Virus record (IMG/VR): IMGVR_UViG_3300038443_001768
Strand: one strand, 5' to 3'
Length of the DNA stretch: 64,000 bases
From: a virus
Positions 7,043 to 30,723 of the stretch are shown piece after piece. Each line of letters begins with the position of its first letter. Positions within the stretch are counted from its first letter, which is position 1. Position numbers and translations under genes: made by a program. The notes under the pieces are model-generated. The model searched no databases. It was not told where the DNA came from and worked only from the letters and a program-made list of their open reading frames with translations.

Positions 7043-7567
7043 CTAGCAGTCGCCGCTCTTTCTGGCGGCGGCCATCGCCGAGGCCAACGACGGCGCACGG
7101 CGAGGCAGGGCGTGAATCCCGTACGGGAGCGGGACCTTCCTCGACAGTGCCGCTTCGAAGAAGTTCTCCATCCGCCGGTCGTAGTCGGCCTTCAGATTCC
7201 GATACGTGGACTTGTAGGCCAGCACGGGGTCCTCGACCAGGGTCGGTGAGTCCGCGTCAGACGCTGCGTCCTTGGCGTTACATGCCGTTGCCGCCGCCTG
7301 CTTCATGTCCTCCCAGTCTCTGAGGATTGCGTCGGTCTGCTCTCTCACGTGCGGCATCTGGGTGTTCTTGTGCGCTTCGTGCACGTACTGCCCGCCGTCG
7401 TGGAGGGCCGTCGAGAGCAGTGTCGCCGCGCCCAACAGGACCACGACGCCGACGATCCATGCCACGGGATGCCGCGTGAATGAGGTGCCGGCCTTGGCGG
7501 CGCTCTTCGCGGCCCGATCGGCGCGGTCTTCCCAGATCTCGCCGTTGCTGCGGTCGTCGTGATTCAC
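7043..7567 (-). CDS. Single-pass membrane protein (partner of adjacent lipoprotein)
   Basis: N-terminal TM helix; helical ectodomain ending ADYDRRMENFF...LP; similar architecture to 50970-51422. Confidence 0.8.
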   Translation of the reverse strand: MNHDDRSNGEIWEDRADRAAKSAAKAGTSFTRHPVAWIVGVVVLLGAATLLSTALHDGGQYVHEAHKNTQMPHVREQTDAILRDWEDMKQAAATACNAKDAASDADSPTLVEDPVLAYKSTYRNLKADYDRRMENFFEAALSRKVPLPYGIHALPRRAPSLASAMAAARKSGDC

Positions 7568-8208
7568 TTCTGGTCTCCGATCGCGTTTTCGATGATGCGC
7601 TGTGCCAGCGCCGGCTTGCCTGCCTTGAGCGCCGCTTGAGCAGCCGTGTCTGCCCGCCCGAGATTAGCGTCGACGGTAAGCGAGATCTTCGTGGACTTGC
7701 GCTGGAACTGCGTCGGCTTGTTCGAGCAGTACGTTTCCAGGTTGAAGAAGTCTACGTACGCGCCGCCCGGCGTGAACCCGTACCGGTACTGCGGCGGGTT
7801 CGGGTGGTAGAGGCCGTCGACTGAGCGCTTCGGGATCACCGAGGCGTCCGAGTAACTGCCAGGATGATCATCGAGAACCCCCTCAGGGGCGAAGTACGAG
7901 GTGCTAGAACTTGTCAGCTTGCCCGTCACCGGCACCGTTACCAGCGGCGACGACGGGTTGTTGAAGCTGAACGTGCACCAGAGGATGTTGGACGGGTCGT
8001 CGTAGATCTCTTGCGCGTGGTTGTAGTTCTTGAACTCGACGTCGTTCTTCGGCAGGTAGGGCGCGCGACGCGAGGCCTTCTTGGCGACCTGCTTGTAAAT
8101 CTCAGCCTGGCTCGGCGGATGCGGCTTGCTCTGCTCGCCCCCGCCGCAACCGGTGGCGGCGAGGCCTCCGAACACCAGCACGGTCAGCATGATGATGATC
8201 TTGCGCAT
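7564..8208 (-). CDS. Phage lipoprotein
   Basis: Signal peptide with lipobox ATGC; paralog of 8457-9101. Confidence 0.85.
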   Translation of the reverse strand: MRKIIIMLTVLVFGGLAATGCGGGEQSKPHPPSQAEIYKQVAKKASRRAPYLPKNDVEFKNYNHAQEIYDDPSNILWCTFSFNNPSSPLVTVPVTGKLTSSSTSYFAPEGVLDDHPGSYSDASVIPKRSVDGLYHPNPPQYRYGFTPGGAYVDFFNLETYCSNKPTQFQRKSTKISLTVDANLGRADTAAQAALKAGKPALAQRIIENAIGDQK

Positions 8209-8456
8209 CAGAGAGTGATCTCCTGTACGATCGCGGGCGCGACAGCGGTCTTCTCCTTGCGGATCTTGAAGATCCCGACTCCGTTGTGCCGTCCGGCGTG
8301 ATCTGCGACCACTACGACATCTCCGTGGTTGAAGAGGGTCGCAGACTTGGCACTTGTCTCACGTAGCGCGTCCTCAGGGGTGGTGCCCTTGGCCTCGCCA
8401 AACTCCCACCAGGCCACGAGCTTGGGGTCGATCCTCCAGATGTGGTAGTTGTTCAT
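8208..8456 (-). CDS. Hypothetical protein
   Basis: Translationally coupled between two lipoprotein genes. Confidence 0.7.
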   Translation of the reverse strand: MNNYHIWRIDPKLVAWWEFGEAKGTTPEDALRETSAKSATLFNHGDVVVVADHAGRHNGVGIFKIRKEKTAVAPAIVQEITL

Positions 8457-9101
8457 CTACTTATCCGAATCGAGAGCGTTGAGAGCACGCTGCGCGCCGG
8501 CTCGGTCGCCCCGCGCGAGTGCGGCCTCCGCGGCCTGATCGGCGGCCTTGGCCTGTTCATCAACCGTGACGGCGACCTTGGTGGTCTGGCGCTGGAAGCG
8601 CGTCAGTGCGGTCGTGCACAGGGTGGGCATGTTGAAGAAGTCCACGTACTGGCCGCCAGGAGTGAAGCCGTAGCGATACGGCGGCGGCGAGCCGTGATAC
8701 ATACCGTCGACGGATCGCCGCTCGGGCGTGTACTCGGGATGATCGATGTTGTGATCGCCACGCCACGCTCGCGTGGATGGGAAGAACGAGACACTCGACG
8801 AGGTCAGCTTGCCGGCGATCGGAATCGTCACAAGCGGCGAAGACGCGTTGCCCCACGTGGTGGTGCACCAGACGATCGTGTTGGGGTTCGCGTACAGCCG
8901 CTGAGCGGCCGTGTAGTTCTTGAACTCAGGAGACGGCCATGCCGGAACAAATGGCCGAGTCGAGTTCGAGCGGCCGTCGATCTGCGAGAGGATGTCTCCG
9001 GCGCTGTCTGCGCCAGCGACGGCAAGTGAGCCGCCGCAACCTGCTACGGCCAGCACTAGGGCAGCGCCCCAGGCCGGTCCGATCTTGCGTAGGATCTTCA
9101 A
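8457..9101 (-). CDS. Phage lipoprotein
   Basis: Lipobox VAGC; shares EFKNY, GKLTSSS, SVDG, YRYGFTPGG, YVDFFN with 7564-8208. Confidence 0.85.
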   Translation of the reverse strand: MKILRKIGPAWGAALVLAVAGCGGSLAVAGADSAGDILSQIDGRSNSTRPFVPAWPSPEFKNYTAAQRLYANPNTIVWCTTTWGNASSPLVTIPIAGKLTSSSVSFFPSTRAWRGDHNIDHPEYTPERRSVDGMYHGSPPPYRYGFTPGGQYVDFFNMPTLCTTALTRFQRQTTKVAVTVDEQAKAADQAAEAALARGDRAGAQRALNALDSDK

Positions 9102-9133: not shown

Positions 9134-9162
9134 ACTGTAGCCGGTCCGCATCGGCGTGTCAA
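9134..9162 (-). promoter_or_regulatory. Sigma70-type promoter for lipoprotein operon
   Basis: TTGACA-N17-TACAGT. Confidence 0.8.
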
Positions 9163-9176
9163 GCGTGAAAAGCTTT

Positions 9177-9471
9177 GCTAGCCTCGATAGCCGGGGTTCT
9201 GTTCCGCTGACGCGGCGCTGACCATCCATCTACGCCTCGCGGCGTCCGTCATCTCTCAACGTGACGGTTCTCTCACCATGACCTCCTCCGGGTGTCCTCA
9301 GGAGGTCGAACTTGAGATCTCATCCAGGCCTCGGCGAACTGCTGGCTTATTAGGCTTTGCTCTCGTGGTCCAAGCGGCCAAAGACCTCCCACCGGCCGTT
9401 TACGTCGAGTTAGCCCCGACGTGGATGCCCCGAACTTCCTCTACGTCTCCGCAGCGGCCAGCCCGGCTAGC
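9177..9471 (-). ncRNA. rnpB: RNase P RNA (divergent, minimised), ~295 nt
   Basis: CR-I GAGGAAGUUCGGGG (9441-9428) and CR-V ACAGAACCCCGGCUAU (9202-9187) form P4 with the bulged U; P1 GCUAGCC/GGCUAGC; P2 GCUGGCC/GGUCAGC; P3 and P18 GNRA hairpins; J18/2 AGAUGGAUG. Confidence 0.88.
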
Positions 9472-9670
9472 CCTGTGACTCTAGCAGATATCGAATCTCG
9501 TTCAAGGCTCTGATCGCGTCTACTTCGGGCGCTCCGCCTTCAGGCGAGTCTGCGCCTGCGATGCGCATCAGCGACATCACCGCGCAGACTAGCGTGGCGT
9601 CCTCGAACTTCAGTAGTTCCTTGGATGGCGCGGCTTCGTAGACTTCATCGACCGAGAAGCGTGTGAACAT
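9467..9670 (-). CDS. Hypothetical protein
   Basis: Coupled ORF; its stop codon lies inside the 5' strand of RNase P P1. Confidence 0.7.
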   Translation of the reverse strand: MFTRFSVDEVYEAAPSKELLKFEDATLVCAVMSLMRIAGADSPEGGAPEVDAIRALNEIRYLLESQG

Positions 9671-15099: not shown

Positions 15100-17340
15100 G
15101 CTGTCGTTATTGGTATCGGTTTGGTGCCTGTCGGTGGAGGCTTCGTACCACTTCTTATTTTTCCTCTCCTGTGTGGCACCAGCAACGCGTTCCTTGAGCC
15201 CCTCCCACTGCTGAGGACGTTTTTCTAGTCAACAACCCTAACAAACCAAACCCGCTCATGGAGCCATTTCCCTTACTGGTCCTGTGGATGTCCACTATGT
15301 TGGGGTTCTTAGTGGTCCAGTTTGTGTTCCTGTATGCCTTTACAGTCATGTAAAGGGAGAATGAGTGGGGGCGCACTGAGACGTCCCCCACATTCCCCAC
15401 AACCCCCCACGACCGACTCAACGCAACCATCACTCGACCCCCTAGACGCCCCTCGCCTACCCCGCTCTGAGAGAGCGCCGACGCCCGCTCTGACGTCCAT
15501 AGACAGACTCAGCCGTCCGTACCTACTGCCGACGCATCCCGTGCGCTTAGAGCGGACGAGAATGGCTTTCGTATCCGTCACTGCTACAGATGGGCGGCCG
15601 AATCGGGTACTAGGGATGCCCTCTGGGGGTATGGGTTGCGTTGGGATCAAGTCATAGCGGTTGGTCCGATGGATCGGATTTGGCTCAAACGCTTGACCTC
15701 GACGCGAACATAGGTTCGCTGGGGTCGAGTTCGCCTATAACAGCGTTCGCATCTCAGGCGAACACAGGCTAAATGTTCGCTGAGAACAGAGCGTCTACGC
15801 GCCAAAGTAGCCGGTATGCGCCGCCCATACCCCCATTTCCCATCCATCGGGTGTAGGTACCGACGCCTACATAGGCTGTCTATATGATGTCCTAGGCCTA
15901 GGACTACATGTTGAGATTTGGCTCTACTAGGCCAAATGCGACCGCAACGGTTGCAGTTGCGCAAGCAACGACGTTTCGCCGCAGGCGAAACCAGCAACCC
16001 TAGGGTTGCGGATGGCCGGAAAACCAAGTCCTACATGTTGCGCTCAGAGCCCTTACGTGGCAAGGCATTGCGAGTACTTATACGCCAATGGCTCCATCTT
16101 ATCCCTGTACAGGGGGCGCTCTCACGCGTGTAATGGGCGGCGGCAACCGCTGGACTGGCAATCTCGGCCGCAGCGGAACCGGGGAGAGCGATCCCCCGGG
16201 GGTTCCATCGGAATCGGCATATGCCAGACGCGGTCATCCGCCGTCACTCGCCTAGTGCGTCTCCCAGTGACACCGGACAGACAGGGAGTCAGTCCCCCGG
16301 ATGACCCGCGTATCGAAACTCCGCTAGTCGGCACGGACCCTAGGTCCGGCGAACGCAAGCAACGCGTGCCAGTGCGGCGGAGCGCACTGCCCCGGTCAAG
16401 TAACCAATGCCTATAACTAGGCACGGACTCCGGGAGCAAAGGTGACTAGTCAATGTCATTGACTTCCAAATCACGTTGTAGAACTACGCGTCTCACGCGT
16501 ACGCGCGTCTCACGGGACAGCGCCGACTCACGCCAAAGACCCGAACCCCTCGCACGATCAATGACCCCCAACGACGGGGATTCACGATCAACGCCTAGGG
16601 GTCGATCACGGACAAAGAGCGGCGCGCCCAAAGAGCGAACCGGACACAAAGAGCGAACGTAGGACTATGACAATGAGAGTAGGAGGATACGAACGGATGA
16701 CTAGTAGAAGTGCCCATCTGCCTCTCACGCGTAGGCCTAGGCCTAGTGCGATGCGCGTCATGCAGCCGATTGGTGGGCAACAAAGCAATGACCATAACAA
16801 CCGTGTCCTCACTCACTCGACGATGCGACGAAAGCGAACCCCTTCATTCCTGCCCCGCTACGGCGGACGTTAGGCGTAGGGCTACCGAGTAGTTGATCGA
16901 CAACGTCGAGCCGATCACGGCAGTGGCACTGACTACCGAATCTCACGACCGCTGAGAGCGTCTCACGATTCGGTCGAGCGTCTCACGGACGCGTCGCACG
17001 GTTACACGCGCGTGTAACGGATGGCCGATCCTCTCCGCCGATGGGCGGACCGATCGAACCCCCACCCGTTGGACGCTCTGCCGCGCGACCCCTAGGAGCG
17101 AACCGACCGACTCAATGAGCGAACCCCGGACAATGACAGTAGGTAGACAATGACATTGACTTGACGGAAGCCAAGAGCGTCAATTCAGGATGTCGTCGGG
17201 GTAGCGCCCGACCAACGGTAAGTTATAGGTCATGGTCGGTGGTCCGGCCAAACGTTGCTTTGCCTATAACTTGCAGGCGGCGCCTTGGGGTTCGATTCCC
17301 TAGGGCGCCTTTTGGTTCAACCCTAACTAGGGAGTACTTG
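15100..17340. other. Non-coding divergence region (candidate genome terminus/origin/early control region)
   Basis: Coding strand switches here; no credible ORF; C-rich tract, many CTAG sites, CAATGA, GCGAAC and TCTCACG repeats. Confidence 0.7.
17195..17313 (+). ncRNA. Structured leader ending in 12-bp T-loop minihelix
   Basis: Stems 17195-17212, 17218-17230/17262-17274, and GGCGCCTTGGGG-TTCGATT-CCCTAGGGCGCC-TTTT (17279-17313). Confidence 0.6.
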
Positions 17341-30263: not shown

Positions 30264-30454
30264 GACGCGTCAGGATCGAAGTCACCGAGTACTACATCAT
30301 CGATATCGGCGAGGAAAACGACGGCACGGACGCCGTCCTGGAACTCGACGAGATGGACTCAGACGATCGTGCCGCCGCCTACCAAGAGCGGTACGTCAGG
30401 GTCTTCGATGACAACACTGGCGGCGAGTTGCCGGTCGATCGGACGGTCGTGTGA
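30260..30454 (+). CDS. Acidic hypothetical protein
   Basis: ATGA overlap. Confidence 0.7.
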   Translation: MRRVRIEVTEYYIIDIGEENDGTDAVLELDEMDSDDRAAAYQERYVRVFDDNTGGELPVDRTVV

Positions 30455-30723
30455 TGCTGCTGACGTTCTCCGTGTACTCCGCGGAGCCCTACCCAATCAA
30501 CGAGTCGTGGTATACGCTCGAAGAGGCTATCGAGGCCGAGTCCCACACCGTCGCCGCTGAGGCAAACGCGGATCACATCCCGGACCCGTCCGAGGACACG
30601 CGCGAGGCTTTCCGGCTGGAGGTCGTGCATGCCGCTACGGCGGCGTTGCAGCGGCCGGGCGACACCTACCGTGACCCGCTCGGGGTCGTGTGGTCGCTGG
30701 TCGAAGACCGCTCCCGAACCTAA
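30451..30723 (+). CDS. Hypothetical protein
   Basis: Coupled ORF. Confidence 0.7.
   Translation: MMLLTFSVYSAEPYPINESWYTLEEAIEAESHTVAAEANADHIPDPSEDTREAFRLEVVHAATAALQRPGDTYRDPLGVVWSLVEDRSRT

Follow-up and report, generated by a model that had tools for sequence, protein, structure and literature searches.

RNase P RNA is regarded as a cellular housekeeping ribozyme, and the tRNAs encoded by phages are assumed to use the host enzyme. A 64,000-nt stretch of viral DNA (IMG/VR record IMGVR_UViG_3300038443_001768; hereafter the window) raises the question of whether a phage may carry an RNase P RNA of its own and, if so, what it would be used for. A sequence-only reading of the window had proposed a phage-encoded, minimised RNase P RNA on the minus strand, and had named a covariance-model search and a collection of homologues as ways of checking the proposal.

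An RNase P RNA gene in a phage genome

With Infernal run in E-value mode, the covariance model RNaseP_bact_a (RF00010) was found to align over its whole length to positions 9171-9473 of the window, giving a significant score (27.1 bits, E=9.7e-7) that lies below the gathering threshold of the model (100 bits). A search of the window at the Rfam gathering thresholds returned no matches. Within the clan, RF00010 and not RF00011 was the best match. Folding gave z=-2.1 for the RNA, and minimum free energy folding yielded a wrong structure because P4 is a pseudoknot. The features of the gene are collected in Table 1.

Table 1. Features of the RNase P RNA gene and its surroundings (window coordinates)
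Feature	Position	Strand	Evidence or remark
Upstream 67-aa ORF	9467..9670	-	stop codon inside P1 5′ strand; 3′ end contains putative RNA promoter
Probable own promoter of the RNA, within upstream ORF	9478..9505	-	-35 TTGAAC, 16 nt, extended -10 TGnTAGAGT; expected +1 at 9472/9471
RNase P RNA gene, P1 to P1, 295 nt	9177..9471	-	RF00010 match, helix map, conservation in G002
P1	9471-9465/9183-9177	-	helix map
P2	9462-9456/9223-9217	-	helix map
CR-I, 5′ strand of P4	9428..9441	-	bulged U at 9433
P5/7	9427-9422/9326-9321	-	P5 and P7 continuous
P8, typical L8 loop	9403..9421	-	two pair-preserving changes in L151; same helix with other sequence in L137, L099
S-domain core: P10 5′ strand, P11, 2x7 internal loop, 4-bp P12	9365..9397	-	module in homologues
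J5/15 (AGA)	9318..9320	-	Infernal alignment and anchored parse of homologues
P15, P16 hairpin, L15 GGU motif (9277-9275)	9271..9317	-	anchored parse, helix map
P15.1-like helix	9246-9267	-	helix map; similar helix in most homologues
P18 with GNRA loop	9232-9245	-	loop GCGA/GCAA conserved in L151
J18/2 (CR-IV, 9231-9223) and P2 3′ strand	9217..9231	-	P2 pairing score
CR-V, 3′ strand of P4	9187..9202	-	Rfam alignment, 15-mer scan, pairing analysis
Separate promoter for downstream lipoprotein-like genes	9134..9162	-	marks 3′ boundary of the RNA gene

The gap holding the RNA had been described as free of genes, which is accurate apart from P1, since the 67-aa ORF upstream ends 5 nt inside this helix; a 66-aa ORF on the plus strand (9278-9478) was treated as spurious. 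At 295 nt the RNA is compact, not minimal. It probably has its own promoter, judging from the promoter-like elements listed in Table 1, with transcription starting at P1. The two hexamers are identical in the related genome G002, while the spacer between them differs; in G008, another related phage, each of the two tRNA operons has this extended -10 in front of it, and a similar one lies ahead of the RNA in G004.

G002 (139.5 kb, 99% complete) is collinear with the window at about 70-90% identity, and encodes a terminase, a portal protein, an HK97-type capsid, a tape measure protein, Pol A and a class II RNR. The source of the window is an uncultured phage of ~140 kb. Together, the full-model RF00010 match and the phage gene set of this syntenic relative bear out a phage-encoded, reduced RNase P RNA. 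The G002 copy of the RNA (locus L151) is 96.3% identical to that of the window, against 75-88% for the adjoining genes; the substitutions in P8, P12 and P19 preserve pairing, and L18 remains a GNRA loop. Purifying selection on the window RNA is evident at this level of comparison. The 62% GC content, the form of the promoter, and matches to Arthrobacter and Streptomyces phages and to a Puerhibacterium prophage point weakly to a host that is probably actinobacterial; a search for WhiB, made for host assignment, found none.

Directly downstream of the RNA, and with their own promoter, lie two tandem paralogous genes for 214-aa lipoprotein-like proteins (7564-9101, minus strand), which have hundreds of unnamed phage homologues and no PHROG match. 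Lipoprotein-like genes of this family also occur in another phage (L240, 8372-10057), where a gene-free gap of 850 bp, which may hold Y RNAs, is followed by a gene for a Ro60/TROVE protein. A tRNA-like or Y-RNA-like element is found at a strand switch of the window (17190-17312, plus strand) and in G002 (30447-30525). It has a T-arm hairpin within an acceptor-like helix and a promoter-like site ahead of it; ARAGORN called it tRNA-Ala in the relative and not in the window, and it gave zero Rfam matches.

Catalytic core and remodelled S-domain

The landmarks P1, P2, P3, CR-I, CR-V, P5/7, P8, P15/16, P18, J18/2 and P19 lie where the sequence-only reading had placed them. Among the elements common to all RNase P RNAs, P1, P2, P3 and J18/2 are present in canonical order, as is the P4 pseudoknot with its bulged U, which has eight pairs around U9433. 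U9433 corresponds to U69 of E. coli (M1 RNA numbering); relative to M1, three pairs of P4 are altered (A67-U359 to G-C, G68-C358 to U-G, and C71-G356 to G-C). Infernal placed a one-base insertion in CR-V, which was rejected since both P4 strands retain the E. coli length when read ungapped. At the level of homology and covariation, the catalytic domain is shown to be complete.

Several of the earlier helix labels were wrong, and the P15.1-like helix had been overlooked. Instead of the P9 hairpin that had been called, a short linker follows P8; the nearest candidate pairing (9398-9394 with 9379-9375) is disrupted in a relative by a change that improves P12. The description of P12 as vestigial and of P13/P14 as absent agrees with the helix map. 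L8 may pair with a conserved AGUU-GCC stretch near 9340, a possibility considered on four sequences.

The S-domain is remodelled. The stretch that had been read as a degenerate CR-II is the 3′ strand of P11, and the T-loops of CR-II and CR-III are absent; in their place, P11 and P12 are separated by a conserved internal loop of 2x7 nt in which GA faces GCUUGGA. P11 (9392-9389/9368-9365) shows compensatory variation among relatives, and P12, a 4-bp stub in the window, is fully Watson-Crick in the G002 copy. The P11-loop-P12 module was recognised in 30 of the 44 homologues described below, a few of these matches being probably false, as against 1-6 in shuffled sequences; its flanking helices covary, and P12 ranges from 4 to 180 nt in length among the homologues that bear it. 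The long strand of the loop, which often ends in a U-N-N-N-A pentamer, may form a single T-loop. Loss of the canonical T-loop platform, of P9 and of P6 reduces activity in model RNAs and, like the score far under the gathering threshold, speaks against an active enzyme.

How the RNA relates to the known types can be judged element by element. It shares with type A (E. coli M1 RNA, rnpB, RF00010) helices P1-P5, P4 with its bulged U, P8, P15/16 with the L15 GGU motif for RCCA pairing, P18 with a GNRA loop, J18/2 and P19, all in the same order. Unlike type A RNAs, it is viral, has the three changed P4 pairs, G (9319) in place of A248 in J5/15, the 2x7 loop for CR-II/III and the extra P15.1-like helix, and it lacks the P6 pseudoknot, P9, P13 and P14, which are also absent at the homologous loci L099 and L137. 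As far as homology indicates, it thus resembles type A in its workings and departs from it in score, A248, CR-II/III, P6, P9 and P13/14. Types B and C carry a P15.1 helix between P15 and P18. The P15.1-like helix and the lack of P6 and P13/14 recall these types (RF00011), from which the phage RNA differs in having P16, in lacking P5.1 and P10.1, and in leaving the type B core sequence unmatched; the P15.1-like helix is its sole type B element. RNAs of CPR bacteria without P12-P14 (PMC8172020) and the type T RNAs of Thermoproteaceae are similar in scoring below the Rfam thresholds and in keeping the catalytic domain while the S-domain is reduced. Unlike the phage RNA, those RNAs are cellular and essential, and the GGU motif, which the phage RNA keeps, is gone from many CPR copies; the available portion of the sources reports neither a G248 nor a 2x7 internal loop.

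Viral homologues and origin of the RNA

Homologues were gathered by exact scans of IMG/VR for both P4 strands, which co-occur 170-415 nt apart in many contigs. About 44 distinct viral homologues were obtained, most of them inside tRNA arrays; among the exact viral matches to the CR-V 15-mer, 31 of 40 were RNase P-like RNAs. Three homologues with the same P4 variant score above the gathering threshold (L147, 255 bits; L048, 191 bits; L129, 169 bits), and they bridge to the degenerate forms.

This collection provided the covariation that had been looked for, the pairing of P2, P4, P5 and P15 being kept by compensatory change. Such changes occur across the viral homologues in P2, P4, P5, P15, P11 and P12, and the compensatory P4 variants of L211-L217, L220 and L248 fix the position of the bulge. 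Over 39 sequences, P2 strands paired at 6.28 of 7 positions, compared with 5.04 ± 0.10 when partners were swapped, and in 32 of these 39 homologues P5, a 3-nt J5/15, P15 and the GGU motif could be anchored.

The family is varied. Its commonest phage subfamily (L005, L076, L126, L131 and others) shows a P6 pseudoknot extended to 6 bp, in which pairing is kept by compensatory change, and a long P15.1 that ends in a UGAAA loop. In some otherwise intact phage RNAs CR-I itself varies, with an extra C or with the first A after GG changed to U (L133, L149, L210 and L218; L127, L136 and L145). At L138 (about 7700-8170) an AT-rich ORF precedes the 3′ part of the RNase P RNA, apparently as an insertion inside the RNA, and possibly encoding a homing endonuclease. 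A metagenome scan gave a sole match, a copy of L137. When the window RNA and two homologues were compared by blastn with 50,697 GenBank phages, no cultured carrier was found. The one match, to ‘Microcystis phage MaAM05’ (L226, MW495066.1 109416-121478), lies amid bacterial fliM, fabI and glyS and was rejected; it is most likely an unannotated host rnpB in a contaminated record, probably a bacterial contig.

In 185,579 cellular genomes, the P4 variant together with J18/2 gave four matches, one due to chance and three on short MAG contigs. Of these three, two lie in tRNA clusters and two have sub-threshold RF00010 matches, and they are most likely misbinned phage DNA. They carry phage-type RNase P RNAs (L207, L208 and L209) and were binned into GTDB MAGs of Pseudomonadota, Chitinophagales and Nitrososphaerales. 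The P4 variant thus appears essentially confined to viruses, and since it occurs with J18/2 in these three contigs only, the RNA is not a recent copy of host rnpB, as the sequence-only reading had maintained. A captured host rnpB, now decaying and functionless, would account for the low Rfam score and the loss of several universal elements. This explanation is largely refuted, and hardly credible, given the 96% identity of the RNA amid flanking genes at 75-88%, core changes that all preserve pairing, the lack of the P4 variant in cellular genomes and the family-wide covariation.

Residue 248, tRNA leaders and probable function

We consider it likely that the gene specifies an active phage RNase P RNA that works with host RnpA and matures the phage pre-tRNAs through a tuned contact at position -1. 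The genomic context of the RNA is rich in tRNA functions. Five related phages (G001-G004 and G008) have 24-35 tRNAs each (35 in G001, 25 in G002), and the operons of G001 and G002 have spacers of 3-5 nt, CCA being encoded in 2 of 33 tRNAs. A CCA-adding enzyme is present in G002, G003, G004 and G008, and G002 also encodes RtcB and Thg1. The Thg1 gene (L162:377-1159) is found there though the tRNA-His of a sister phage (L164) already carries G at -1; the enzyme may serve to mend 5′ ends after cleavage at +1 or at a wrong site. The window itself contains neither tRNA nor RnpA, as had been noted. In the syntenic relative the first tRNA array begins some 0.5 kb past the point matching the window start, and in this phage the RNA gene is about 10 kb from the nearest array. 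The relatives agree in lacking RnpA: PF00825 gave no match in eight related or neighbouring records (G001-G005 and G008-G010), and the absence rests on this profile, a loose six-frame motif scan having yielded noise.

A248 of RNase P RNA is nearly universal and adjoins substrate position -1 (PMC9433436, PMC11143913). By Infernal alignment and the anchored parse, it is replaced by G9319 in the window. G248 occurs in this phage and in four related phage lineages, J5/15 being AGA in the window, G001 and G002, and CGA in G003 and G004 and at loci L099, L137 and L248; all other phage copies parsed have CAA or UAA. Among 401 actinobacterial genomes none showed the G248 pattern, while 92 showed that of A248 (89 when G350, G162 and G357 are left out).

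The tRNA leaders differ accordingly at -1. In four G248 phages the base at this position is C in 64 cases, A in 32, U in 19 and G in one (C or A in 96 of 116), counts that are drawn from relatives about 80% identical to this phage and not from its own genome. Before G008 was added they were C45/A29/U15/G1. G008, which was found through its capsid protein after the shift at -1 had been predicted, combines G248 and the shared S-domain module with a P4 that differs, and it has C-1 in 19 of 26 leaders. A248 phages, by contrast, have U-1 in 170 of 226 leaders and C in 23, and C exceeds U at none of their loci. In G009 (L253, 11000-29000), a 37% fragment in which no RNase P RNA was found, the bases are A13/C6/U3; we predict that its RNA, which if present would lie outside the fragment, carries G248.

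An active RNA that simply supplements or backs up the host enzyme, with no real preference, is an unlikely alternative, in which the bases at -1 would follow from the composition of the host or of the spacers, or would keep -1 from pairing with +73 in precursors that lack CCA. It draws on the pyrimidine-rich spacers, in which -3 is as C-rich as -1, on the scarcity of C-1 ahead of G73 in G001, G003 and G004, on the avoidance of U-1 in G009, and on the broad activity of E. coli G248 RNA (PMC10465520). Position -2, however, is not C-rich, and G008 has C-1 even before G73. U-1 also persists in CCA-less phages whose GC content is similar or higher, both those with A248 (U28/C11 of 48) and actinophages in which no RNase P RNA was found (U44/C17/A8/G3, n=72; C or A in 25). 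This control set comprised Wakanda, Racecar and Bxz1 regions and G010, all CCA-less and with up to 64% GC (Bxz1). Orthologous leaders share the -1 base in 56 of 129 pairs, and the bias is therefore not simple descent: the bases turned over and stayed amino. The G248 phages are all of one related clade, which favours the supplement, and the correlation therefore amounts to about one evolutionary event, its strength being overstated by p-values.

Published kinetics fit this shift. E. coli G248 RNA cuts mini-substrates with U-1 10-20 times more slowly than A248 RNA, and loses about 160-fold when the 6-amino group of A-1 is missing; these N-1/248 effects become visible when S-domain or RCCA contacts are missing (PMC10465520). 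In the G248 phages that is the natural state. The O4 of U-1 is positioned to bond the amine of A248 (PMC11143913), while some high-GC bacteria prefer C-1 with A248 and Watson-Crick pairing between N-1 and residue 248 is disputed (PMC10465520, PMC11143913). The correlation between G248 and N-1 is shown by these leader counts; a causal link would be an inference from it.

In the mechanism that we favour, the RNA would be transcribed from its own promoter and would bind host RnpA, since the phage group encodes none. It would cut at +1 the ~35 phage tRNA precursors, which are closely spaced and for the most part lack CCA, and their 3′ ends would be completed by trimming and the phage CCA-adding enzyme. 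With the T-loop platform that reads the elbow replaced, and the RCCA contact mostly unavailable, the choice of cleavage site would lean on J5/15. At this junction G has taken the place of A248, and substrate position -1 has gone over from U to C or A, both amino bases. Of the two functions proposed earlier, maturation of phage tRNAs is favoured by the tRNA arrays, the CCA enzyme and the G248/N-1 match, while altered specificity gains backing at -1 and none for host RNAs. That the phage enzyme is partly orthogonal, preferring C-1 or A-1 and favouring its own tRNAs, with co-evolved leaders, over host U-1 precursors while using host RnpA, so that G248 and the rebuilt S-domain would give the phage a separate line of tRNA maturation, is a tentative extension, possible though somewhat doubtful.

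A retargeted endonuclease acting mainly on non-tRNA RNAs of host or phage (host shut-off, or processing of phage mRNA or ncRNA) seems very improbable. Bacterial RNase P does have non-tRNA substrates (PMC4919922), loss of the elbow-reading platform could broaden their range, and the gene can sit apart from the tRNA arrays in this clade; yet the link to tRNA arrays is family-wide, the -1 bias of phage tRNAs follows residue 248, and no candidate target was found.

The sole viral precedent that we found in print, the RNase P-like RNA of camelpox and other orthopoxviruses, belongs to a eukaryotic virus, bears a loose structural likeness, did not process pre-tRNA in vitro and is not associated with tRNA arrays; it has been discussed as a decoy (PMC3001073). 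A phage RNA that folds and binds host RnpA or pre-tRNAs, cuts poorly and so titrates host RNase P and perturbs host tRNA supply would agree with the conservation being best in the RnpA-binding region (P2-P4, J18/2) and with the remodelled S-domain. We nevertheless regard such a role as improbable: the RNA retains the catalytic bulged U as well as J5/15, GGU and L18, 35 tRNA precursors require RNase P activity, and the G248/N-1 match would be left unexplained. The theta ribozymes of gut phages are likewise phage-encoded and tied to tRNA maturation, and differ in being small, HDV-like and cis-acting at the 3′ trailer; their description assigns 5′ maturation to RNase P and does not mention a phage copy (PMC10879173). 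We found no paper on a phage RNase P RNA in the literature accessible to the search, and phage copies go unmentioned in the major surveys, both of huge phages and of viral RNAs.

If the partly orthogonal reading is correct, this would be, to our knowledge, the first active virus-encoded RNase P ribozyme. Indirectly, the G248/-1 match argues for activity of phage RNase P RNAs. Such RNAs score under the Rfam cut-offs and are missed in annotation, and in the module that replaces the S-domain core a new RNA motif awaits structure determination. The natural A248G change and the matching shift at -1 make the 20-year question of how residue 248 reads N-1 directly testable on natural enzyme-substrate pairs, and the partly orthogonal reading, if true, would amount to a natural compensatory experiment on this disputed contact. 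If the viral copy is functional, certain phages possess every link in the chain of tRNA maturation.
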